From positions 1 to 62,599 of IMG/VR virus record IMGVR_UViG_3300045988_162118: a stretch of 62,599 bases of DNA. One strand, given 5' to 3'. The DNA is from a virus (Duplodnaviria > Heunggongvirae > Uroviricota > Caudoviricetes). A program made the position numbers and the translations under genes. Position 1 is the stretch's first letter; every line of letters starts with the position of its first letter. Below are positions 11,236 through 58,465 of the stretch, piece after piece. Below the pieces are notes generated by a model. It worked only from the letters and a program-made list of their open reading frames with translations, was not told the origin of the DNA and made no database searches.

Positions 11236-11399
11236 GTATTTTTAAGTCACGAATGCTATCTTTTCGCATCATATTGACCTTTTAATCGTTCAGGCTTATA
11301 GTTCCGCCGTCGTAGCAAATTCTGCGACCAGGTTTGACAGCCTGAATGATTGTGCGGACAACCGCAGATTTCCGATATTGCGGTATTTTTGTGTCCGTT

Positions 11400-11549
11400 A
11401 AACCGCGTTACGCCCAAATTATGGTGGGGCGTGATGGGGAGGCTTCGGCCTGCTGGTTTCACAATCGCCAGTCTGTCAACCCTGTCACGTCCTGCCACCT
11501 GTTTGACAGCGGGTAGCAGGTTGTTAAACCTGATTGTGAGGCCGTAACT
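11400..11549 (+). ncRNA. leader region expected to hold a c4-like antisense repressor RNA (not delimited)
   Basis: Position upstream of icd/ant as in P1 immI; repeated GTTTGACAG elements at 11326 and 11490; boundaries not determined. Confidence 0.25.
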
Positions 11550-14947: not shown

Positions 14948-15070
14948 TACAATCGTTGCGGGTGCTTGAGGCTATCTGCTTCAGGCATTACCCGAAAAGC
15001 AGATAGAAGAAAGCCCCAGATAACATTACGCGTCCTGCAAGACGCTTAACATTAATCTGAGGCCATATCT

Positions 15071-15277
15071 ATGCTTAGCATACGTAGATTAGCCTCTTAC
15101 CGACCAAAAGGTCAAGGAGAAGCAGGCTATGAAGCAGCAAAAAGCGATGTTAATCGCTCTGATCGTCATCTGTTTAACCGTCATTGTGACGGCACTGGTA
15201 ACGAGGAAAGACCTCTGCGAGGTACGAATCCGAACCAGCCAGACGGAGGTCACTGTCTTCACAGCCTACGAATCTGA
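15071..15277 (+). CDS. mok-like overlapping reading frame
   Basis: 68-codon ORF in a different frame covering the start of the hok-like gene. Confidence 0.3.
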   Translation: MLSIRRLASYRPKGQGEAGYEAAKSDVNRSDRHLFNRHCDGTGNEERPLRGTNPNQPDGGHCLHSLRI

Positions 15278-43334: not shown

Positions 43335-44008
43335 TGGCACCCACAATTTATCACCGTATCGACGGTACCAAATACAGGAATGTCTGGGTTGTTGGTGATC
43401 TGCATGGTTGCTACACCAGACTGATGTCCGAACTCCATCGTGTGGATTTTGACCCGGCGCAGGATTTACTGATATCGGTCGGCGACCTTATCGATCGCGG
43501 TACTGAAAATGTCGAATGTCTGGAACTATTGCAGATGCCCTGGTTCAGGGCAGTAGTGGGGAACCATGAGCTGTTGATGCTCGATGCGTTAAGTCCTGAT
43601 GGCAACGTGAATAACTGGCTAATGAATGGCGGTCAATGGTTCTTCATGCTGGACGCTGATCAGGAAATATTAGCCAGGGCGCTGGTGGAGTTGGTAAGAC
43701 GACTGCCCTATATCATTGAGTTGAACACCGGGCAAGAAACTATCGTTATAGCCCATGCCGACTATCCGGATAATGAATATCAATTCGGTAAGGAGGTGCC
43801 GCTTTTCAACGTTGTCTGGGCGCGCGAGCGTATCAGTGATTCGATGGATGATATTGGTGGCGAAATTTCGGGCGCAGATCGTTTTATCTTTGGTCACACT
43901 CCGGTGAAAAGCCCGAAGACATTCTGGAATCAGCATTATATCGACACAGGTGCCGTATTTTGCGGAAACCTGACATTGAAGAAAGTGAAAGGTGATGGTG
44001 CAGCATGA
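43331..44008 (+). CDS. ppp: Ser/Thr protein phosphatase (calcineurin-like metallophosphatase)
   Basis: GDLHGCY, GDLIDRG, GNHE motifs; start ATGA overlaps upstream stop. Confidence 0.7.
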
Positions 44009-44706
44009 AGATTGCTTTAGTTCTTCGCTCTGGTGGTGACTATAACGCTTCCGATGTGCAGTGGCTGGTTAATCAACTGCCAAAAGACTATGAAATTATT
44101 TGCCTGACAGACCTGAAGTGTTTACATGTACCTGGCGTCAAAGTTATCCCATTGATCAACCAGTGGCAAAAGTGCCGTGGCTGGTGGGCGAAAATCGAGT
44201 TGTTCCGACCGGATATAACCGATGATCTGTTCTATCTGGATTTGGACACGGTTATTGCCGGTGATATACACCCAATCCTAGAGAATCCACCAACCAACTT
44301 CACCATGCTTAGGGATTTTTACCATCCACAATATCGTGGCAGCGGTGCCCTGTGGATACCAAATAGTGTAAAAGCGCATATCTGGAGTGCATTCTGGCAA
44401 GATCCGGAAGGTTGGATTGCTCGTTGTGTTACTACTGAATGCTGGGGTGATCAGGGGTTTTTGCGGAAGGTTATGGGTGATGATACACCAGCATTTCAGG
44501 ATCTGTATCCGGGATGGTTTGTAAGTTACAAGGCCGATGTTGTGGAACCTGGTTCGAAATATGCGAGCGCGCGTTACTCCAGGGGGAATGGGGCATTACC
44601 AAAAGACTGCCGAATAATCTTTTTCCACGGCAAACCGCGACCTCGCGAAGTGTCAGAGGATTGGATTCCCCTTACCAGCTCGTTTTTTGAGCAAGTATCA
44701 GAATAA
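44005..44706 (+). CDS. glycosyltransferase-like protein with DxD motif
   Basis: 233 aa; YLDLD motif in a Rossmann-like context. Confidence 0.35.
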
Positions 44707-44707
44707 T

Positions 44708-44724
44708 ATTGCTCTAATAATTCC
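44708..44724 (+). promoter_or_regulatory. C1 operator-like box
   Basis: ATTGCTCTAATAATTCC. Confidence 0.4.
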
Positions 44725-44756
44725 ATATTTTTAAAACGTGATGTACACTCATCACG

Positions 44757-44773
44757 TTTTTTATTAGAGCAAT
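44757..44773 (-). promoter_or_regulatory. C1 operator-like box, inverted partner
   Basis: TTTTTTATTAGAGCAAT; with 44708 box flanks hairpin AAAACGTGATG-TACAC-TCATCACGTTTT. Confidence 0.4.
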
Positions 44774-44787
44774 TTACAAGGTGCACT

Positions 44788-45006
44788 ATGTGGCCATTCC
44801 GACGGAAATATCACTACTGGCTGATCGCCTTTGTTACGCCGACCGGCGGTATCAGGCATGTCATCACCAGGTATCGCAACAAGAGACTCACCTTAGCCAG
44901 AATTTTACAGGCTGCCATAGGTGAGGGACTGGATACAAATTGCGTAGTCCTTCCTCCTTCATACTTAGGAAAAATGACCGAAGCACAAGCTAATACGGAA
45001 CTTTGA
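44788..45006 (+). CDS. hypothetical small protein
   Basis: 72-aa ORF downstream of operator pair. Confidence 0.3.
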   Translation: MWPFRRKYHYWLIAFVTPTGGIRHVITRYRNKRLTLARILQAAIGEGLDTNCVVLPPSYLGKMTEAQANTEL

Positions 45007-45007
45007 A

Positions 45008-46270
45008 ATGAGCACTTCAGCACAAAAGCAATCAATCGAAAATGTATCTATCCCTGATGTCCTGAATGCCGGTATCCCGGCCATTATCCAGAACATCCGG
45101 GCCGCGCAACGCCGCGTTAGTTGTGATGACCTCACAGCACGTTTTTTTGATAATGCGGTTCAGTCAGCGGAGATGCTTCACGCACAGCTTATTGATGTTT
45201 ATAACGCAGAAGCTGATAGCCATAACTCTCTGGTAGATGCAGCTGAAAATATGCAGTTGGATCTCGGTCTGAAGGGTAAAGAAATTGAAGAGCTTCAGCT
45301 GGAAATTGAACATTTGAAACGCCAGCAACAGGACGCGATCGACGATGCGACGCATGATGCCAACCAGCGTGCTGATAATGCCGAACGTATAAGCATTGAG
45401 CTGGAAACAAAACTCAATGAAATGACCGCGATGGTTGAACTGCGGAACTCACAGATTTCAACGCTAAAATCTCAATATAAAGAGATCATGAAACTTGATC
45501 CTTTTAACCTTGAGAAACGCTATAACAAAGCTAAAAGCGAGCGACAGGAACTGCGTAAGCAGGTCGCCGACCTTAACCAACAGCTCAAAAAAACTATTAA
45601 AGATGCAAGCGAAGCGCGCGTGGCATTTGCTAATAAAAAAGCAGAGGTTACCGCGCTGGTTAATGAGAATGCCAAATTTGCGACGCTCAAGAAGGAAATG
45701 TATGGCATTACTGAGCGCCGTTTCCCTGCAAGCAAACTTCATCCGACGTTAGGGCAAATCTCCTTCTTCCCGCGCCTCCTGGCTTATGGGATCTCATCGC
45801 CTAAAGAGTTCAATAACGAGCGTCCTTATATCGTTTCTAAGCTGGACTTTGCTTATCAGTTCTGCTGCGACATGGGCTATGCCATTGATATCCGGATCAA
45901 CGAATGGCTGATGCCAAACTTCCAGCCGTTGGCCATTTTCCGCGAGTTCCAGCCGGAAGGTTGGGTAGAGTTCTTCCATGAATTGATCTGTAAAGAGATG
46001 GAAAGCCGCCGCCCGGAACTGGTCCGTCGAGTTGAGTGGGCGCAAGAGGTTATGTTGGCAGAGGCAGAGCTGCCGTTCGAACCGGAATTTATTGATAATC
46101 TGGCAGCTAAAGGGCTGCATACCCTGTTTGATGTGGTTACCCGCCGTCATGAGCAGTTGGTTGTCGAATTGGGTTTAGAGGAAACAGCGGCAAGAAGACT
46201 TCTCGATGTTTGCTATGCACGTAGCGATGCATGGGAAAAAGAGAACGGCGGCACTATTTACGTTCGCTGA
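45008..46270 (+). CDS. coiled-coil protein of unknown function
   Basis: 420 aa; long heptad-like charged helical region in N-terminal half. Confidence 0.4.
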   Translation: MSTSAQKQSIENVSIPDVLNAGIPAIIQNIRAAQRRVSCDDLTARFFDNAVQSAEMLHAQLIDVYNAEADSHNSLVDAAENMQLDLGLKGKEIEELQLEIEHLKRQQQDAIDDATHDANQRADNAERISIELETKLNEMTAMVELRNSQISTLKSQYKEIMKLDPFNLEKRYNKAKSERQELRKQVADLNQQLKKTIKDASEARVAFANKKAEVTALVNENAKFATLKKEMYGITERRFPASKLHPTLGQISFFPRLLAYGISSPKEFNNERPYIVSKLDFAYQFCCDMGYAIDIRINEWLMPNFQPLAIFREFQPEGWVEFFHELICKEMESRRPELVRRVEWAQEVMLAEAELPFEPEFIDNLAAKGLHTLFDVVTRRHEQLVVELGLEETAARRLLDVCYARSDAWEKENGGTIYVR

Positions 46271-46342
46271 CAGTTACAGTGTCACTTTTAATGCTGGTGG
46301 AGTGCGCCCACCAGCATTTTTTTCGTCCAATGAGGAGGGCAT

Positions 46343-46849
46343 TTGAGTATTTTCAATAAACACGCACACCAGGAACGTCCGTATATCGTCATAGTTGATA
46401 TTGATGGAACAATATCAGAGGCAACTGAAGACAGACTGCATTTGCTTCCGCCACCAGGTAAAGGTGCATTAACAAAGGACTGGAACGAGTTTAATCTCGC
46501 CTGTGACACTGATACTCCCATAACTCCAGTTATTGATATTGTGCGCCAGTTATTTAACGTTTACACGGTCTGGTTTGTAACCGGGCGCTGTGAGATCGCA
46601 AGGGATAAAACACGAGCCTGGCTGCGGAAGTACGTAACAAACGGGGCTGAGCCTTTGCTATCTATGCGTCCTGCCACCGATGACAGAAATGACGGCCCAG
46701 CAAAGATTGATCTCCTTAAGAAAATTGGTCTAAGTAAAATCGCGTTCGCGCTGGAAGATAAGATTGAAGTGGCGCGTGTTTTCAGGAGGCACGGCGTACT
46801 TACGTTAATGGTCAGGGAGTATGAAAACGCGCTTCTCCATCAACAATAA
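46343..46849 (+). CDS. pap: HAD-like phosphatase
   Basis: YIVIVDIDGTISEAT (DxDGT HAD motif I); 168 aa. Confidence 0.5.
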   Translation: MSIFNKHAHQERPYIVIVDIDGTISEATEDRLHLLPPPGKGALTKDWNEFNLACDTDTPITPVIDIVRQLFNVYTVWFVTGRCEIARDKTRAWLRKYVTNGAEPLLSMRPATDDRNDGPAKIDLLKKIGLSKIAFALEDKIEVARVFRRHGVLTLMVREYENALLHQQ

Positions 46850-46865
46850 TTGCTCTAATAAATAT
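46849..46865 (+). promoter_or_regulatory. C1 operator-like box
   Basis: ATTGCTCTAATAAATAT beginning at last base of pap stop. Confidence 0.5.
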
Positions 46866-46947
46866 TGATTTTTAAAACAGAGAAAGTGAAAATAAAAACA
46901 TGCCGCAAGGCGCGGCATGTATCCAGTCAATCACAGGAGCTGAAAAT

Positions 46948-47034
46948 ATGAACACGGCATTCAAAATCATTATGGCCGCGATCTATTTCTGGCTGTTCTC
47001 TATCACTTTTGGCGGCATCGTCGCGCATGGGTAA
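46948..47034 (+). CDS. 28-aa hydrophobic peptide
   Basis: Not in track; AGGAG RBS; MNTAFKIIMAAIYFWLFSITFGGIVAHG; hairpin CATGCCGC-AAG-GCGCGGCATG just upstream. Confidence 0.35.
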   Translation: MNTAFKIIMAAIYFWLFSITFGGIVAHG

Positions 47035-47113
47035 GGGGAGTATATTAGCCATTTGGAACCCCACGGTCTCTTGCGGGTTTAATTAAGAACCCGCAAGAAA
47101 AACACGAATTGGG

Positions 47114-50100
47114 CTATATTTTTCCGCCTACGCCTTTAAACTTCTCAATAAACGAGACGATTTTCTGGAAAACTGCCTGTTTTTTCGTTTTATATTGCGG
47201 ATTTAACGGACTAAGTTTTGGTAATGTTTCATTTAATTCTGTGCCATTTTCGGTGGCATATTCGCGTTTTAAAGACGTGCGAATATAGCGTTTTGCAGCA
47301 TCTTCATTGAGATTTTCTTCTTTTATCAATGCTTCTGCTTCACGTTGCTGTTCGCGTTGAGCAAACGTAAAGAATGCGTCAATGATGCTGGCTTTGTCCG
47401 GTAAATCATCCAGGTTCGTTTGCTGAATAAAATCGACCACCAGGCCCTCTTTAGCACGGTTCCCTAGGCTTGAACGAATTAAGCGTTTGACCTCTTCGAT
47501 CATTTCGCCCTTGCCTTTATTTTGTCTGTTGTGTTCGAAAATCAGTCCAAGGATATAATCCAGGTTTATTTCCTGAGACTTCAGCAAATCGACCTCAAAA
47601 ACTACGTCATCCCAGTCAGTGGTTGATTTCTCTTTTTTCTCAGCTTCTTTCTCACGGCGCTGCCAGTCGCGAATATCGTTATAGGCAGAACGATAATCCT
47701 GAATCTTGCGATCAGCAGGGAGACGAATTGTTTGCAATTCAGCGAACTTTTCATCATCCACATAATGTTCTGCTTTGAATTTTTCTACCGCAACAGGATC
47801 GCTAAGATCGATTTGTTGCAGGGCTTTTAGCGTGGCAAATTCATCATAGTTTTGCAGGATGTTCTCGGCACGCAGGTATTCGCCAAACAGTTTAACGAAG
47901 TCTTTCTTCTCTTTTTCACTTTCAATACTGGTAGGGTCAGGGAACCGTTGTTCCAGTTCTGAAACTACTGCCATAAAGCCGCGTTTGGCTTCACCGGTGG
48001 CAGCATCAGTAAAACCTTCCATATACTCTGCATAACTCTTTTCTAACACCACATTTTTGGTATTTTTATCACCAAACAGCGTTATGGCATCAATGGTTGA
48101 GCGTTCCAGATCCCGAAAAGTGACAATGTTACCGAAGGTTTTAGTGGCGTTATAAATGCGGTTGGTGCGGGAAAATGCCTGCATCAGGCCGTGAAAACGC
48201 AAGTTTTTATCGACGAATAGCGTGTTCAATGTTGGAGCGTCGAAGCCGGTTAAAAACATCCCAACGACAATTAACAGATCGATATCCTGATTTTTAACCC
48301 GTTGGGCTAAATCGCGATAGTAGTTCTGAAAACCGTTACCGTCGGTGCTGAAGTTAGTTTTAAAATAGCTGTTATACTCACGAATTGCAGCGTCAAGAAA
48401 CTCTTTAGCACTGCTGTCCATTGCGCTGGTATCAAAAGTTTCATCGGAAATTTCACCAATGGCATTTTGTTCTTCATTAGCGGCAAAGGAGAAGATTGTC
48501 GCAACACGCAGCGGTTTATAAGTTGCAGATTTATTAGCGGCTTCCTCTTGTAACCGTTTAAACGCCGCGTAATAGGCTTTTGCAGCATCCACGCTGCTCA
48601 CTGCCAACATAGCATTAAAACCTTTTGCGCCAGGGAAAGTACGGTGCGTCTTCTGGCGGAAGTTATTCAGAATATATTGCGTAATTTCCTGTATACGCAT
48701 GGGATGAAGAAACGCCTGCTGATTTTCAGCCGCACTTAGTTTTTTCTCGTCGGTTTCTGTCTCTAAAGACTTAAACTGTGGCCGCACATCGTTATAGTCC
48801 ACCTTGAATTTGAGCACTTTTTCATCACGAATCGCATCGGTAATAACATATGAATGCAATTCACGACCAAATACGCTGGCGGTCGTTTCTGAGCCTAAAG
48901 CGTTTTCCGGGAAAATAGGGGTACCGGTAAAACCAAACTGATAATAGCGTTTGAATTTCTTCTTCAGGTTTTTCTGCGCTTCTCCAAACTGGCTGCGGTG
49001 ACATTCATCAAATATAAACACCACTTGCTGATTATATACAGGCAGGTCGCTTTCTGCTTTCATCAGGTTATTGAGTTTCTGAATAGTAGTGACGATAATT
49101 TTGTTATCGTCCTTATCCAGATTTCGTTTAAGGCCTGCGGTATTTTCCGAGCCGTTGACGCTGTCTGGCGAAAAACGCTGATATTCCTTCATGGTCTGGT
49201 AATCGAGGTCTTTCCTGTCGACCACGAAGAAGACTTTATCAATAAAGTCCAGCTCTGTTGCCAGACGCGCGGCTTTAAAGCTGGTGAGGGTTTTACCAGA
49301 ACCGGTAGTGTGCCAGATATACCCACCGCTTTCCGGTTTTGACCAGTTCTTCGCTGTAAAGGAGCTCTTAATTTTCCACAGAATGCGCTCGGTGGCAGCA
49401 ATCTGGTACGGTCGCATCACCAGTAGCGTCTGACTGCTGTCAAAAACGCTGTAGTTCACCAGAACATTAAGCAGAGTATGTTTCTGGAAAAAGGTAGCGG
49501 TAAAATCTTTGAGGTCTTTAATCAGCGTGTTGTCTGATTTCGCCCAGTTCATGGTGAAGTCAAAACTGTTTTTATCGCGCTTTGTTGTGTTGGCAAAATA
49601 ACGGGTATCGGTGCCGTTAGAAATGACAAACAGTTGCAGATACTTAAACAGGGAATTTTCGCTGTTAAAACTCTCTTTACTGTAACGATGTATCTGGTTG
49701 AAAGCCTCACGAATCGCCACGCCGCGCTTTTTCAGTTCGATTTGTACCAGTGGTAAGCCATTAACCAGGATCGTGACGTCATAACGGTTAGCATGAGAAC
49801 CCGTCTGTTCAAACTGCTGGATAATCTGCACCTTATTGCGCATGAGATTCTTTTTATCTATCAAATAGATGTTCTCAAGTCGCTCGTCATCAAAAATAAA
49901 GTCGCAAATATAGTCGATATGGATTTTACGGGTCTTATCCAGAATGCCATCGCTCGGGTTGTCCAGATACTGCTCCGTGAAACGCCGCCACTCGCTGTCA
50001 TTAAACACCACACCATTGAGGCTCTGAAGCTGTTCCCGAACGTTGGCCAGCATCGCTGACTGTGATTTTACCGAAATAAATTCATAGCCCTGATTCCGCA

Positions 50101-50230
50101 GGTCTTGAATCAGTTCACGTTCCAGGTCCGATTCGCTCTGGTAGCTGTCGCCTGTTGGCTCAGCTTTGATGTACTTATCAAGAACGATAAAGTTATTGGA
50201 TTCAGCAATGGTATGTGTTTGATGAGTCAT
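47114..50230 (-). CDS. hsdR: Type I restriction enzyme R subunit
   Basis: Start at MTHQTHT with AAGGA RBS (track starts 50290); about 1038 aa; helicase motifs TGSGKT and FDECHRSQ. Confidence 0.85.
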
Positions 50231-50351
50231 AGCGCATCCTTTGTGCCGTCTGGCAAGGGCCGGAAGGGAGTTAAGAGTGACTTCCGGCACGTAAAAAATA
50301 GTCTATATACAGACCGGATGTTAAGGTGGCCCGGTCGGTAGCAACGGTCAA

Positions 50352-51569
50352 TTAATTACTGACAGTTTCAGGTTTTGGGAAACTGAACAGTAAATCACGA
50401 TAGTACTCGTATTGTTTCTGGCGCAACTCGATTTCACGCGGGAGACCTTCGGTGATGGAAGCTGCGATTGCATCAAACTTATCTAGAATATCCACAATAC
50501 GCCCCTGTTCGTCTAAAGATTTTTGAGGGTGAGATGGGTATGGAATAGGTACTCTGACTTGTTTCAGTGCATTAGCATTAAACTGTGGTTGCCCGCCACC
50601 AGATACTAATTTATTAGCCTGTTCCCAAAAAAAATCACTTTGTGCAAAGTGCCAGTAATATTTGGCATTAATAATCGTTTCATTTAGGTTCAACTTTATT
50701 AAAAAACCAGCGTATACTGCTGGATAATCTTCTTCAAAAATCATTGTTTTACCAAAGGTTGCACCAGTCCTTGCCATGAGTAAATCATTTTTGTCTAAGG
50801 TATATTTCTCATTTTCCTCATTTAATTCAACGTACATTGGGTTTTCTTTCGATAGCTTCCCGTCTTTATTTATGTCAGTAATTCTCACGAAACGGGCATC
50901 TCCTGAGTCCATGGCTTTGGCTGCATATCCATATGTAAAATTCCCAATTTCCCCCAAAGTCTTCCACTCAACCTCACCCTCTTTAAAACTCAACAACTGG
51001 TCGCGATAGTAGTTGTACTGTTTTTTACGCATGTTAAGCTCAGCGGTAAGCTCAGCGGTAAGTGCAGTAAATTTATCCAGAATCCGAACGATTTCAGACT
51101 GGATGGCAAGGGATTTTTCCGGATTATCCGGGCAGGGGATTGGTACAGGTATCTCAATTAATTGTCCTTTAGTTAATTTTGCCCTTCCTCCCCCGGTAAG
51201 GAAGGGAAGGAAATTAACGATGCATAAATAATGATATAGAAATCTAGAATGAACTCTTTCTTTTCCTCGTACGACATGAACATGGTTGTTTGCCCAGAAT
51301 TTACCAGTTGCATATTGAATTGAATAATTTTCTAAACTAGCCGAGCCATCTTCTGCAATTAAGACATATTCACCATCGTGGGTATATCCATCCACATAGT
51401 CTTGAATGTTGTTAGCACCATAATAGGGCGTCTCGCCTGCAATGCGCAAAGAGGCTTTTACTGGCTTTCTTCCATTATTCGCTATTTCGAAGAGTGAAGT
51501 ATCACCAAGATTTCTCCACTCAACTTCAACCCCATCCAGCAATTTTTCCAGATAACTTAACTCGCTCAT
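50352..51569 (-). CDS. hsdS: Type I specificity subunit, Type IC-like
   Basis: 405 aa; two TRDs; central conserved region [28 protein letters not shown] with two TAEL repeats; second conserved region [16 protein letters not shown]. Confidence 0.85.
51037..51060 (-). repeat. 12-bp tandem repeat (2 units) encoding TAEL-TAEL in hsdS
   Basis: AGCTCAGCGGTA x2 on plus strand = ACCGCTGAGCTT x2 on coding strand. Confidence 0.8.
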
Positions 51570-53128
51570 TTTTGCACCTCGCAGCCTTCAATTTCAGCCA
51601 CAATCGCATCAATATCTTTACGCAACTGGTCGATTTTGCTGACCGTGGTTTTCAGTTCTGCATTCAACTCAGCGATATCGATAATTTCGCGAGTATCTTT
51701 CGCTTCAACATAACTGCTCACCGACAGGTTATAGTCATTCGCGACAACAGTCTCAAACGCAACAGATTTCGCCAGATGGGCAACATCTTCCTTGCCGGCA
51801 AATACCTGCATAATCTGTTCGATATGGGCATCGGTCAGGATGTTGTTATTAGTCTCTTTTTTGAATAGCTCGCTGGCGTCAATAAACTGAACGTTGGTAT
51901 CGGTTTTATGTTTAGACAACACCAGAATATTGACGGCAATGGTGGTGCCAAAGAACAGATTCGGTGCCAGTGAAATCACGGTTTCGACATAGTTATTGTC
52001 GACCAGATACTGACGGATTTTCTGCTCCGCACCGCCACGGTAAAAAATACCCGGGAAGCAGACAATCGCAGCACGACCTTTGGCAGAAAGATAGTTCAGC
52101 GCATGTAATACAAACGCAAAGTCAGCTTTGGATTTGGGGGCCAGAACGCCAGCTGGGGCAAAACGTTCATCGTTAATCAGCGTCGGGTCATCGCTGCCAA
52201 TCCATTTCACCGAATACGGCGGGTTAGAAACGATGGCATCAAACGGTTTTTCATCTCTGAAGTGCGGTTCAGTCAGCGTATTGCCCAGCTTGATATCAAA
52301 CTTGTCGTAGTTGATGTTGTGCAAAAACATGTTCATACGCGCCAGGTTATAGGTCGTATGGTTGATTTCCTGACCGAAAAAGCCTTCTTCGATGATGTGG
52401 TTATCAAACTGTTTTTTCGCCTGCAACAACAGTGAGCCGGAACCCGCTGCCGGGTCGTAGATTTTGTTAACGTTGGTCTGCCCGTGCATAGCCAGTTGTG
52501 CAATCAGCTTGGAGACGTGCTGCGGTGTAAAGAACTCACCACCTGACTTACCGGCATTTGCCGCATAGTTAGAAATCAGGAACTCATAGGCATCACCGAA
52601 CAGGTCAATCTGATGTTCGTTGAAGTCACCAAGTTTTAACCCTTCAACCCCTTTCAGAACCGCAGCCAGGCGGGCATTTTTATCTTTAACGGTGTTACCC
52701 AGGCGGTTACTGGTGGTATCGAAATCAGCAAACAAACCTTTGATGTCTGCTTCTGAAGGGTAGCCGTAAGCAGAACTTTCGATAGCAACGAAGATGCTGT
52801 TTAAATCTGCATTCAGTCTGTCATTAGTATTTGCTTTCGCAGCTACGTTGCAGAAAAGCTGACTGGGGTAGATGAAGTAGCCTTTAGTTTTGATGGCATC
52901 GTCTTTAATGTCATCAGTAATTACGCTGTCATCCAGTTTCGCATAACAGATACTGTCATCACCGGCTTCAATATAACTGGAAAAATTTTCGCTGATAAAA
53001 CGGTAGAAAAGTGCGCCCAGAACGTATTGCTTAAAATCCCATCCATCGACCGAACCCCTGACATCGTTAGCAATTTGCCAGATTTGACGATGAAGCTCTG
53101 CACGTTGTTGAATACTTGTCATTTTCAT
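51566..53128 (-). CDS. hsdM: Type I DNA methyltransferase M subunit (N6-adenine)
   Basis: 520 aa; NPPY motif ([11 protein letters not shown]); SAM-binding region; 4-bp overlap with hsdS start. Confidence 0.85.
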
Positions 53129-53259
53129 CCACTTATTTCAGGCTTATGTAATTGGCGGTGATTCTACAGCAACTTGGATGCTTTAGCAGTTCGGACATTA
53201 GGCTACGAATGACCTGCCTAGAGGTTTGTTAAGCCGCAAAGGGCTGGTGCTTTATGCCT

Positions 53260-53296
53260 GTGAGGTTTATAATTGTGTACACATAACGAGTACACG
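53260..53296 (+). promoter_or_regulatory. phd-doc promoter/operator
   Basis: TATAAT at 53267-53272 followed by GTGTACAC and GAGTACAC half-palindromes. Confidence 0.55.
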
Positions 53297-53304
53297 AGGT
53301 GTTT

Positions 53305-53526
53305 ATGCAATCCATTAACTTCCGTACCGCGCGCGGCAACCTTTCTGAAGTGCTCAACAATGTTGAAGCCGGGGAAGAGGTTGAAATCACCCGCAGAGGC
53401 CGTGAGCCAGCAGTAATTGTCAGCAAGGCTACTTTCGAAGCCTACAAAAAAGCGGCGCTGGATGCTGAATTTGCATCCCTGTTTGACACCCTGGACTCCA
53501 CCAACAAGGAACTGGTTAACCGATAA
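53305..53526 (+). CDS. phd: Phd antitoxin
   Basis: 73 aa [73 protein letters not shown], recognised as P1 Phd. Confidence 0.9.
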
Positions 53527-53906
53527 TGAGGCATATATCACCGGAAGAACTTATTGCGCTTCATGATGCGAATATAAGCCGCTACGGCGGCCTGCCTGGC
53601 ATGTCAGATCCGGGCAGGGCAGAGGCCATTATCGGGAGAGTTCAGGCCAGAGTTGCCTACGAAGAGATCACCGACCTTTTCGAAGTCTCCGCCACCTACC
53701 TGGTGGCTACAGCGAGAGGGCATATATTCAATGATGCCAATAAGCGTACCGCGCTAAACAGTGCGCTGCTATTTCTACGCCGTAACGGGGTGCAGGTATT
53801 TGATTCACCAGAACTGGCAGACCTTACCGTAGGGGCTGCGACCGGAGAGATATCTGTATCTTCTGTCGCCGACACGTTACGTAGATTGTATGGTTCTGCG
53901 GAGTAG
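53526..53906 (+). CDS. doc: Doc toxin (Fic-fold kinase)
   Basis: 126 aa; start overlaps phd stop (TAATG); Fic-like core [15 protein letters not shown]. Confidence 0.9.
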
Positions 53907-53910
53907 ATTA

Positions 53911-54090
53911 ATGGCACGTAAATACAACAAGTTGTCCCGTGAAGCGTTAAAGATGCTTCTTGATGGCGTGAGTCGCCGCGAGGTAAAGCAATACCTGGTT
54001 GGTAAGCAAGTTGGTGTCAGGACTGCTATTGCTGTGTTATGCCGTCAGGAAATGGTTGTGCTTAAACAGAGAATGCCGGGCAGCAGATAA
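53911..54090 (+). CDS. small putative HTH protein
   Basis: 59 aa from ATG 53911 (track ORF 53890..54090); LSREALKMLLDGVSRREVKQYL...RTA helix-turn-helix-like. Confidence 0.35.
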   Translation: MARKYNKLSREALKMLLDGVSRREVKQYLVGKQVGVRTAIAVLCRQEMVVLKQRMPGSR

Positions 54091-54117
54091 AGCCCAATCA
54101 GTGATGAAAGGTGTGAT

Positions 54118-55161
54118 GTGAAAGCCGTAATTACTCCCTTTGTACAAAAAGAGCTTGGCGTCGCCACATTCAAAGTGGATCAGGAAGTCAGAAAGCTGGT
54201 GGAGGCTGGCCGTAAATTTATTATGGAGCCGGTGCCGCGTGAGTTAATCGAGCACATGGACGACGGCCTCGTTGTTTCCGAGCAAACTATGGCAACAAAT
54301 GAGGCGTTGCAGCCGTTTTTTAACAGCGATGAACTGTTTCGCCGTATTGGTGGAATTGACGCGCTGGTGGCGTGGTTGCGCAGGAAAGAGGGGCAATGCC
54401 AGGCCGCAGATCGTAGTTGGTGTGACAACCATATTGTCCACGCTGAACGAGACAATAGCGCGGTGTTGTTGTGCTGGCATCACGATAACCATTACCGGAT
54501 GCGTGGTTTTAATGAGCTGAAAGAAACGCTGCATAATAATCGCGTTAACTGGATACTGGATGTCGCCCGTCAGGAAATGGGGCTTTCAGATGGCCATGAT
54601 TTAAGTATTCAGGAACTGTGCTGGTGGGCTTTCATGCGCAACATGATGCACCTGATGCCGGAAGAAGTTTGCCGTATATCAATAAATAAGATGAAAGCCG
54701 CAACGCAGGATAGCGGACCTCTGAAAGAGGCGGATATTCGCCCGTATGACGATCGCGCTACAGCATATGTTCAGATGATGGAAGAACGCGCCGCGCCGAT
54801 GCGTGCAAAAGTATGCCCTGTGGATGTTGACTCCGACCCTGGCATGGCGCATTTCAAAATACCAAAACTGCAATCGCTAAAATTACCTGAGTACATGGAC
54901 TTTGTTGCTTCCCGTCCATGCTGTGGGTGTGGAGCGGCGGGAGCTGGCGCTCACATTACGCCTTATATCGTTCGTCATAGTCGATTATGCGCGCATGACA
55001 TTTACGCAATTCCTCTGTGCCAGTCATGCCAGCGTGATATTGAGCGTGACCGCGATAATTGGGAGAAGACGCACGGTAGGCTGGCGATGCATCAACGATT
55101 GTTCTTTGATTACGCGCTTGGAGTCGGCGCTATCACAAGTCACTCGTCGAGTGTTAGATAA
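54118..55161 (+). CDS. Cys-rich protein downstream of doc (pdcB position)
   Basis: 347 aa; C-terminal Cys/His cluster (CCGCG...CAHD...CQSCQ). Confidence 0.45.
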
Positions 55162-55162
55162 A

Positions 55163-55179
55163 ATTGCTCTAATGTATTG
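55163..55179 (+). promoter_or_regulatory. C1 operator-like box upstream of lpa
   Basis: ATTGCTCTAATGTATTG. Confidence 0.45.
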
Positions 55180-55249
55180 CTATTTCTTTAATCGAGGGTA
55201 TCATATTCCACGTTGATTAGTTGACATGGGCTAATCAGTAGGTGACAGG

Positions 55250-55702
55250 ATGTTACTTAACTGGCAGGGACGCCACTTCATGGAAATAAATCACTCACGA
55301 ATAACATCGTACGAGATTGCGGATTACATGATCCGCACTAAATCTCTTCTATCAGCGAAAGAACTCGCAGCAATTCTTGAAAAGGAATACCCGCATCTGG
55401 ATGTCGATAAGCGCGATGTTTATCTGCGCTTAAAGGCTATCGCTGTGTCTAAGTATTCGTCTGTTTTGATTGATGACAGTACACGCCCACGTAGATTTCA
55501 GATCCACTCTCTGAATCCTGAATTCTTTCGCCGTAGCCGCGCTCCGCGCCGGTTTGATGAAAAACTCCAGAACGAACTCTATATGACGCAGGACGAAAAG
55601 GAACGCCGGGAGCACCAGCCTTGGGTAATGGCGCGTCAACTTTTCAATAAGGTGGCCCGTCAGCACCGTCATTACGGTAATGCCACATCCGCACGTATCT
55701 GA
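55250..55702 (+). CDS. lpa: late promoter activator candidate
   Basis: 150-aa ORF between an operator and pacA, as P1 lpa; identity by synteny. Confidence 0.5.
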   Translation: MLLNWQGRHFMEINHSRITSYEIADYMIRTKSLLSAKELAAILEKEYPHLDVDKRDVYLRLKAIAVSKYSSVLIDDSTRPRRFQIHSLNPEFFRRSRAPRRFDEKLQNELYMTQDEKERREHQPWVMARQLFNKVARQHRHYGNATSARI

Positions 55703-55787
55703 TTGATTGCTTGCCCGTTCCGGGCCTTTTGACATGTGACTTTCGTTACCCTCGCGTCAAAAAGAGTTTTTACGAAAGGAAGCATAA

Positions 55788-56981
55788 GTGACCTGGGACG
55801 ATCACAAGAAGAATTTTGCTCGCCTGGCGCGAGATGGTGGTTACACCATCGCACAGTATGCCGCCGAGTTTAATCTTAACCCTAATACTGCACGTCGTTA
55901 TCTCCGTGCCTTCAAAGAAGACACCAGGACAGCGGACAGCCGCAAGCCAAATAAGCCAGTCAGGAAGCCACTAAAAAGCATGATCATTGATCACTCTAAT
56001 GATCAACATGCAGGTGATCACATTGCGGATGAAATAGCAGAAAAACAAAGAGTTAATGCTGTTGTCAGTGCCGCAGTCGAGAACGCGAAGCGCCAAAATA
56101 AGCGCATAAATGATCGTTCTGATGATCATGACGTGATCACCCGCGCCCACCGGACCTTACGTGATCGCCTGGAACGCGACACCCTGGATGATGATGGTGA
56201 ACGCTTTGAATTCGAAGCTGGCGATTACCTGATAGATAACGTTGAAGCGCGGAAGGCCGCGCGCGCTATGTTGCGTCGGTCCGGGGCCGATGTTCTGGAA
56301 ACCACTCTTCTGGAAAAGTCTCTTTCTCATCTCCTTATGCTGGAGAACGCCAGGGATACGTGTATTCGTCTGGTGCAGGAAATGCGCGATCAGCAAAAAG
56401 ACGATGATGAAGGGACTCCGCCTGAATATCGTATCGCGAGCATGCTAAACAGCTGTTCCGCGCAGATAAGCAGCCTGATCAACACCATTTACAGCATCCG
56501 GAATAACTATCGAAAAGAAAGCCGGGAGGCGGAAAAGCACGCTTTATCTATGGGGCAAGCTGGCATTGTTAAGCTGGCATACGAACGAAAGCGTGAAAAT
56601 AACTGGTCAGTGCTGGAAGCAGCTGAATTCATCGAGGCGCATGGCGGAAAAGTGCCGCCCCTGATGCTGGAGCAAATCAAAGCCGATCTGCGTGCTCCTA
56701 AGACCAATACCGATGATGAGGAAAGGCAAACAGCCGTCGGTGGCCCTTCTCTTGAAGATCTGGACAAAGTTGCGCGAGAACGGGCCGCCAACCGCCGCGC
56801 CGATGCCGCATTGTGGATTGAGCAGCGTAGGGAAGAAATCGCCGATATCGTTGATACAGGCGGTTATGGAGATGTTGATACTGAAGGTGTATCAAACGAC
56901 CCATGGCTGGAACAAGACCTGGACGAAGACGAGGAGGAAGACGAAGAAGTTACCCGCAAGCTATACGGGGATGATGATTAA
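55788..56981 (+). CDS. pacA: terminase small/pac-recognition subunit
   Basis: 397 aa; GTG start with GAAAGGAAG RBS; pac hexamer clusters inside 5' coding region; acidic C-terminus. Confidence 0.8.
55981..56140 (+). other. pac: pac packaging site
   Basis: Two clusters of TGATCA/TGATCG hexamers (4 at 55981-56030, 4 at 56110-56140), each with a Dam GATC. Confidence 0.6.
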
Positions 56982-58465
56982 TGGCCAGAAGTTGCGTAAC
57001 GGATCCACGTTGGCGCGAGCTGGTGGCGCTATATCGTTATGACTGGATTGCTGCCGCTGATGTTTTGTTCGGCAAAACACCTACCTGGCAGCAGGATCTG
57101 ATTATTGAGTCTGTGCAGGAACAGGGTAGCAAGACATCTGTTTCGTCTGGTCACGGTACCGGGAAATCAGACATGACTTCTATCATGATCATGTTGTTCA
57201 TAATCATGTATCCCGGTGCCCGCGCCATTATCGTTGCGAACAAAATTCAGCAGGTAATGACCGGTATATTCAAGTACATCAAGATAAACTGGGCTACTGC
57301 CACCAGCCGTTTTCCATGGCTTGCTGATTATTTTGTTCTGACAGAAACCGCTTTCTATGAGGTTACTGGTAAAGGTGTATGGACTGTAGTACCGAAGGGC
57401 TTTCGTCTGGGAAGTGAAGAAGCTCTCGCCGGTGAACACGCAGATCATCTTCTGTATATTATCGATGAAGCCTCCGGTGTCAGTGATAGAGCTTTCGGTA
57501 TCATCACCGGTGCTCTTACCGGACAGGATAACCGCATCTTATTACTGTCACAGCCTACACGCCCAAGCGGCTATTTCTACGATACTCACCATAAACTGGC
57601 CAAGCGTCCTGGTAACCCTGATGGCGTTTATACGGCGATCACGCTTAACAGTGAGGAATCACCGTTGGTAACGCCAGCATTTATCAAAATGAAGCTGGCG
57701 GAGTACGGCGGGCGTGATAACCCTATGTACATGATTAAGGTACGCGGCCTATTCCCTAAATCACAGGATGGCTTCCTTCTTGGACGTGATGAGGTTGAAC
57801 GTGCAACGCGGCGGAAAGTCAAGATTGCAAAAGGATGGGGCTGGCTTGCATGTGTGGACGTTGCTGGTGGTACGGGACGGGATAAGTCCGTTATCAATAT
57901 CATGATGGTGTCCGGCCAGCGAAATAAACGCCGTGTAATCAACTATCGAATGCTGGAATACACAGACGTTACAGAAACGCAGCTTGCCGCCAAAATTTTC
58001 TCAGAATGTAATCCTGAGCGATTCCCAAATATCACCATAGCGATAGACGGCGATGGCCTGGGTAAAGCAACGGCGGATCTGATGTACGAGTATTATGGTA
58101 TTACCGTACAGCGTATACGCTGGGGTAAAAAGATGCATAGCCGTGAAGATAAGAGCCTGTACTTTGATAAACGTGCTTATGCCAACGTTCAAGCCGCAGA
58201 GGCCGTAAAATCTGGTCGTATGAGACTGGATAAGGGTAATGAAACTATTGAGGAAGCGTCGAAAATCCCTGTAGGGATTAACTCCGCAGGTCAATGGAAG
58301 GTGATGAGTAAGGAGGATATGAAGAAAAAACTCAACCTGCACTCACCAGACCATTGGGATACATATTGTTTCGCTATGCTGGCGGATTATGTTCCCCAGG
58401 ATGAAGTGCTTAGCGTCGAAGACGAAGCGCAGGTTGATGAAGCTCTGGCATGGCTTAATGAATAA
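56981..58465 (+). CDS. pacB: terminase large subunit
   Basis: 494 aa; ATP-binding P-loop-like GHGTGKS; start overlaps pacA stop. Confidence 0.85.

Follow-up and report, generated by a model that had tools for sequence, protein, structure and literature searches.

The control of Type IC restriction specificity by the number of TAEL repeats has been known since 1989, the mechanism having been established in the course of the years 1987-1992. Altered repeat numbers were reportedly tested by Gubler and Bickle in 1991, and four or more units are said to give a looser, promiscuous spacing. In the prototype pair of enzymes, EcoR124I carries two 12-bp/TAEL repeats and recognizes GAA N6 RTCG, whereas EcoR124II carries three of them and recognizes GAA N7 RTCG (PMC3874165; table in PMC12707154). 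This had been correctly stated in the preliminary description of the DNA studied here, which attributed the difference in spacer length between the two enzymes to two versus three TAEL repeats. With the extra TAEL turn, the two TRDs come to lie 0.34 nm farther apart and are rotated by 36 degrees (PMC3874165, PMC12707154). EcoDXXI and EcoprrI, both with three units, have N7 spacers, and when the unit number was changed in EcoR124I-EcoDXXI hybrids, the spacer shifted as predicted (PMC3874165, PMC12707154). Unequal crossing-over is held to cause the change of repeat number between EcoR124I and EcoR124II, and the switch from R124 to R124/3 has been documented in the laboratory (PMC3874165). Moreover, the deletion of a single unit turns EcoR124II into EcoR124I (PMC10644984).

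The hsd operon and the TAEL tract of hsdS

In the present study, we analysed a viral DNA of 62,599 bases (the whole stretch is hereafter called the window), which harbours the genes hsdM, hsdS and hsdR together with a short tandem repeat inside hsdS (Table 1). The 405-aa ORF was identified as HsdS by the Pfam family Methylase_S (E = 3e-44) and contains two TRD stretches. Its sole solved relative is the HsdS of EcoR124 (7bst_A), to which it aligns near-exactly at the N-terminus, in the central region of approximately residues 139-209 and at the C-terminus, but poorly in both TRDs. The resulting succession of N-terminal conserved region, TRD1, central conserved region, TRD2 and C-terminal conserved region is the layout of a Type IC specificity subunit, as is the presence of TAEL repeats in the central conserved region, found here as TAELTAEL at residues 171-178. 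Originally, the EcoR124 family was delimited by complementation between subunits or by cross-reacting antibodies. The partner subunits are matched over their full length, HsdR (residues 1-1038) aligning with the EcoR124 structures 2w00_A/7bst at 2288 bits and carrying the Pfam domain EcoR124_C (E = 1.5e-71), and HsdM (residues 1-520) aligning end to end with the EcoR124 chain 7bst_D at 1159 bits. The Type IC assignment made in the preliminary description is thus borne out by the full-length matches of HsdR and HsdM and by the EcoR124 conserved regions in HsdS. The three genes hsdM-hsdS-hsdR apparently form a Type IC operon that is intact and whose TRD pair is unlike that of EcoR124I. As to gene boundaries, the mechanical ORF of hsdR reaches a GTG at 50290.

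Table 1. Positions of the hsd genes, of the regions of HsdS and of the repeat tract in the window
Feature	Coordinates	Strand	Basis or remark
hsdS, Type IC specificity subunit, 405 aa	50352..51569	-	ORF, Pfam, alignment; exact protein P0001
hsdM, 520 aa (518 aa by other gene calls)	51566..53128	-	4-nt overlap with hsdS start
hsdR, 1038 aa from ATG at 50230	47114..50230	-	domains EcoR124_C, SWI2_SNF2, HSDR_N
HsdS central conserved region, approximately residues 139-209	50943..51155	-	near residue-for-residue match to EcoR124 HsdS
TRD1, approximately residues 17-138	51156..51521	-	low similarity to EcoR124I TRD1
TRD2, approximately residues 210-350	50520..50942	-	differs from EcoR124I TRD2
Perfect period-12 tract, 2.33 units of ACCGCTGAGCTT, 28 nt	51035..51062	-	repeat scans
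TAEL-TAEL codons, variable part of central coiled-coil helix (D1)	51036..51059	-	codon register

The likeness to EcoR124 extends to the gene order hsdM-hsdS-hsdR and to the DNA of the repeat, the unit ACCGCTGAGCTT and its flanks being identical in both, and the primers published for the one-unit deletion of EcoR124II (PMC10644984) match the window DNA exactly. With its two-unit state the window resembles EcoR124I, from which, however, it differs in both TRDs, and therefore the half-sites of the window enzyme are expected to be other than GAA and RTCG. The carriers differ as well, EcoR124 residing on the conjugative plasmid R124 and the window operon on a P1-like phage-plasmid. EcoDXXI and EcoprrI belong to the same Type IC family and use the same TAEL ruler, but they have three units, like the E. 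coli PT62 and plasmid pB2-L alleles described below and about 40% of the relatives, versus two in the window; EcoprrI, furthermore, carries the anticodon nuclease prrC, which is absent from the window operon.

A weak direct repeat was also observed inside hsdS (50950-50979 versus 51502-51531, 73% identity, 552 nt apart). It spans the conserved 'VEW..LG' segments preceding each TRD, in which the internal two-fold duplication of HsdS can still be recognized.

On the plus strand, positions 51037-51060 read AGCTCAGCGGTA AGCTCAGCGGTA. Correspondingly, the coding-strand unit ACCGCTGAGCTT stands twice in tandem inside a perfect period-12 tract, for which Tandem Repeats Finder returned 2.3 copies with 100% matches and zero indels. 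In the register of the minus strand, the codons ACC GCT GAG CTT occur twice and encode TAEL-TAEL. The perfect 12-bp tandem repeat encoding TAEL-TAEL, placed by the preliminary description at 51037-51060, was therefore recovered both by direct reading and by Tandem Repeats Finder, these positions denoting the identical repeat with a shift of one base against the codons. When all 62,599 bases were scanned for perfect tandem duplications with periods of 10-30, this tract alone was returned; for one given period, the naive chance expectation is about 0.004 (62,599 x 4^-12). The repeat is therefore not a product of chance. The 12-mer AGCTCAGCGGTA has one further exact match, at 31812-31823 inside a tRNA-Asn gene, which is a coincidence unconnected with hsdS.

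One feature of the EcoR124I/II-type repeat-number switch is that the 12-bp units repeated in the HsdS central helix are perfect and in frame, as is the case in the window. Very probably, the tract acts as the Type IC helical 'ruler' that sets the spacer of the target, rare in-frame gain or loss of a unit giving a heritable new specificity. In this scenario, HsdS keeps its two TRDs apart on an antiparallel coiled coil, the central helix of which is lengthened by four residues (TAEL), or roughly one turn, with each 12-bp unit. A two-unit enzyme would recognize a bipartite site with a short spacer (N6-type), its methylated adenines lying 7 nt apart; in the site of a three-unit enzyme, the same half-sites would be separated by one more base (N7-type), placing the methylated adenines 8 nt apart. 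The tract would at the same time be a substrate for slippage and unequal crossing-over, and the identity of the unit DNA would from time to time allow replication slippage or unequal crossing-over to add or remove one unit in frame, whereby restriction and modification would together acquire a heritable new specificity. By analogy with EcoR124I/II, EcoDXXI and the hybrid enzymes, the enzyme of the window should use the short (N6-type) spacer, and the gain of one unit should add 1 bp to it. The basis for this explanation consists of the repeat itself, the identity of the gene and its family, the intact operon, the alleles that share TRDs, and the homogenisation of the units, the last two of which are treated in the following section.

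Unit number in the family and among alleles sharing TRDs

In order of increasing unit number (n), a survey of 140 Type IC loci, the sources of which were viral contigs of IMG/VR, many species represented by one genome each, and E. coli, comprised 2 loci with n = 1, 84 with n = 2, 50 with n = 3, 2 with n = 4 and 2 with n = 5, counts in which the loci are phylogenetically non-independent and four E. coli loci (n = 3, 4, 4, 5) had been chosen for their unusual length. Among the longest tracts, the E. coli plasmid pDAM_1 (L161) has an intact four-unit HsdS of 388 aa; the other four-unit gene and the E. coli five-unit gene (L160, L162) are disrupted by IS elements, and the five units of Endozoicomonas (L115) are of the form TTEL. 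All of the C-terminal helix segments listed have one constant length, equal to the three-unit length of the central helix, which fits the published remark on three as the 'optimum' unit number (PMC3874165).

At the DNA level, the 140 loci contain 35 different unit sequences, which differ mostly at synonymous sites; 10 of them were found at more than one copy number, and the tract was perfect within the gene in 125 of the 138 multi-copy loci. Units that are alike within a gene and different between lineages speak for recurrent gain and loss, and this pattern indicates a concerted evolution in which repeated gain and loss would keep the units identical.

In E. coli, the 213-nt segment of the window that covers the central conserved region matches 1370 records. 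A systematic sample of 60 of these, again phylogenetically non-independent, gave about 29 cases of n = 2, 25 of n = 3, 2 of n = 4 and 1 of n = 5, the unit numbers being read from length differences and the unusual cases being checked by sequence; the '+6' cases proved to be three-unit genes carrying a 2-aa deletion. In a protein search with an n = 2 query, the top 120 neighbours listed were all n = 2, but since such queries rank n = 2 neighbours highest, this list cannot be used as a distribution.

The TRD pair of the window itself occurs with different unit numbers, namely with n = 2 in the window and in E. coli G5, and with n = 3, the units being identical, in E. coli PT62/LP5-1. The hsdS of G5 shares 98% nucleotide identity with that of the window, with 7 amino-acid differences. 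Compared pairwise over approximately 6 kb, the operons of the window, G5 and PT62 are 96-97% identical, and apart from the 12-nt unit they show no substantial indel, the window and G5 being separated by one 1-nt gap. About 3% of sites differ between the PT62 and G5 operons, and the change of copy number between these two is therefore not recent. In plasmid pB2-L, which has the same P1-like backbone, TRD2 and the C-terminus are identical to the window sequence and are joined by n = 3 to a different TRD1.

When 240 HsdS sequences were grouped at 90% identity or more in each of the two TRDs, three more natural pairs emerged in which both TRDs are shared and the unit number is different. The closest of them (L063/L068), two IMG/VR contigs of about 100 kb, share 99.58% identity over 7.3 kb and differ by 19 substitutions and one 12-nt gap, with no other indel, from which it follows that a unit change is possible within 0.3% sequence divergence. 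In the second pair (L026/L027, 96.2% identity) the 12-nt gap is likewise the sole indel, and the third (L082/L083) is a more diverged pair from two marine genera. Alleles that have the same TRDs and differ by whole units are a further feature of the EcoR124I/II-type switch. As a separate observation, TRD1 and TRD2 within each of the L063 and L068 genes are about 80% identical to one another at the DNA level, which suggests a near-palindromic target for these two enzymes.

The rate of unit change

The preliminary description had further proposed that the element could flip between two specificities. The two states do exist on the same TRD pair, with n = 2 in the window and G5 and n = 3 in PT62, but no sign of rapid flipping was encountered. 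In an exact look-up in a collection of 15 billion proteins, the window HsdS with 1, 3 or 4 TAEL units was absent, and so were the reciprocal unit-number versions of the PT62 and G5 proteins; this absence is weak evidence, because the genuine PT62 protein is missing from the collection too. Likewise, neither IMG/VR nor the JGI metagenomes yielded another copy of the TRD pair in a pattern scan anchored in TRD1 and TRD2, the gap of which was variable so as to admit n = 1-3. The exact HsdS of the window (P0001), carried by roughly 58 assemblies, is present on at least 23 contigs, all of them with n = 2 and all in a P1-like context, and no switching within the window lineage was seen among them. 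These results suggest that the rate of unit change in the window element is low. The most reasonable reading is that the 'switch' is a rare, heritable event which recurs over evolutionary time, like the one from R124 to R124/3.

Could the duplication, then, be a frozen structural spacer, which merely codes for a part of the coiled coil and represents a fixed allele with no meaningful rate of change in this element? The uniform n = 2 of the exact protein on its contigs, with no exact n-variant on record, would agree with such a view, as would the mere 2.3 units of the tract and the approximately 3% by which the two-unit and three-unit alleles of the window TRD pair have diverged. We nevertheless consider it unlikely, given that this very TRD pair also occurs with three identical units, that the near-isogenic L063/L068 differ by 19 SNPs and one unit, that homogenisation of the units inside genes extends over 35 unit sequences, and that R124 has switched to R124/3 in the laboratory (PMC3874165).

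The opposite extreme is high-frequency phase variation, in which frequent slippage, e.g., during lytic P1-type replication, would maintain mixed specificities in the manner of phasevarion-type repeats. Phase-variable simple-sequence-repeat loci possess a long tract of many units, which results in frequent slippage; the tract of the window, with 2.3 units, is not of this kind and is short beside the classical phase-variable repeats. The perfect identity of the units and the almost equal commonness of n = 2 and n = 3 in the E. coli Type IC genes could be brought forward in its support, together with the high copy number of a P1-type phage-plasmid during lytic growth. We nonetheless judge it extremely unlikely, for variants of the window allele are absent from large collections, the assemblies of the element are uniformly n = 2, just 2.3 units of a 12-nt repeat are present and no published rate favours rapid switching. 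It should be added on its behalf that repeat tracts near the TAEL coiled coil have been discussed as possible modulators of specificity (PMC7383803). An elaboration of the same thought, which we hold to be very unlikely, is that slippage at high copy number in lytic growth would generate mixed N6/N7-type lysates and lysogens as a form of bet-hedging, the roughly 50:50 split in E. coli reflecting frequency-dependent selection; if true, the N6/N7 mixture would alter which related lysogens restrict, or are infected by, the phage. Finally, a chance similarity or an assembly artefact, in favour of which nothing speaks beyond the shortness of the repeat and the unrelated 12-mer copy in the tRNA-Asn gene at 31812, is practically negligible and stands refuted by the whole-window scan, with its lack of any other perfect tandem duplication of period 10-30, and by hundreds of independent records with the same structure, the repeat moreover lying in frame within a conserved region and being, at 24 nt, too short to mislead assemblers.

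A rare gain or loss of whole units would have in common with the phase-variable hsdS loci (the survey of PMC7383803; pneumococcal SpnIII/SpnIV) that a local rearrangement of hsdS alters Type I specificity. Unlike the simple-sequence-repeat and shufflon loci, however, the window has no long tract, no second hsdS, no flanking inverted repeats and no recombinase, and the type of change would be in frame and affect spacer length rather than TRD identity or expression. An inverting hsdS shufflon was considered and rejected in view of the single hsdS, the lack of a recombinase and the lack of significant inverted repeats, the search of 46800-53600 having returned weak ones alone (up to 29 nt, 72-93% complementary).

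The tract of the window represents a textbook Type IC mechanism and no new one. Its repeat DNA is the same as in the prototype, and so, nearly residue for residue, is the central region; at most, the TRD pair adds a new allele to the known family. The additions made here are modest and comparative only, namely several natural allele pairs like EcoR124I/II, a range of 1-5 units, and the homogenisation of units across phyla.

The P1-like carrier of the cassette

The hsd operon is flanked by pmgS and a HAD/PNKP-like gene on one side and by phd-doc-pdcB-lpa-pacA-pacB on the other, and its carrier is a P1-like phage-plasmid. P1 matches these flanks (44000-58000) but is devoid of the hsd cassette (47114-53128). 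The Type IC cassette is consequently an insertion relative to P1, situated between pmgS with the HAD/PNKP-like gene and phd-doc. In PLSDB, 167 plasmids share 80% or more of the 14-kb region around it (44000-58000), and their differences lie mainly in TRD1 of hsdS, a swapped segment. With TRD1 as the main variable segment among these relatives, hsdS in P1-like plasmids looks like a hot spot of TRD exchange.

For such a phage-plasmid, the ruler predicts a Type I system that targets a bipartite site with a short (N6-type) spacer, and elements that differ by nothing but a single 12-bp gain would be predicted to be separated by a new restriction barrier. This may be of some practical use in reading methylomes and in anticipating barriers to transfer between the numerous P1-like plasmids with the cassette (167 PLSDB records).

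Several other features of the carrier were observed. A C4 antisense RNA with a1/b1 target elements is located at 11296-11502 (Rfam RF01695, RF03163); these elements belong to the P1 immI immunity region and confirm the P1-like replicon. The sok antitoxin RNA is matched at full length at 14960-15134 (Rfam RF01794, 115 bits), which implies an addiction module of the hok/sok type besides phd-doc. Additionally, a tRNA-Tyr (GTA) at 31884-31970 is placed between tRNA-Asn and tRNA-Thr in the tRNA cluster, and the corresponding insert of approximately 93 nt is absent from P1, P7, D6, RCS47 and SJ46 and present in a few P1-like phages (vB_EcoM-Ro157c2YLVW, CMS-2020a).
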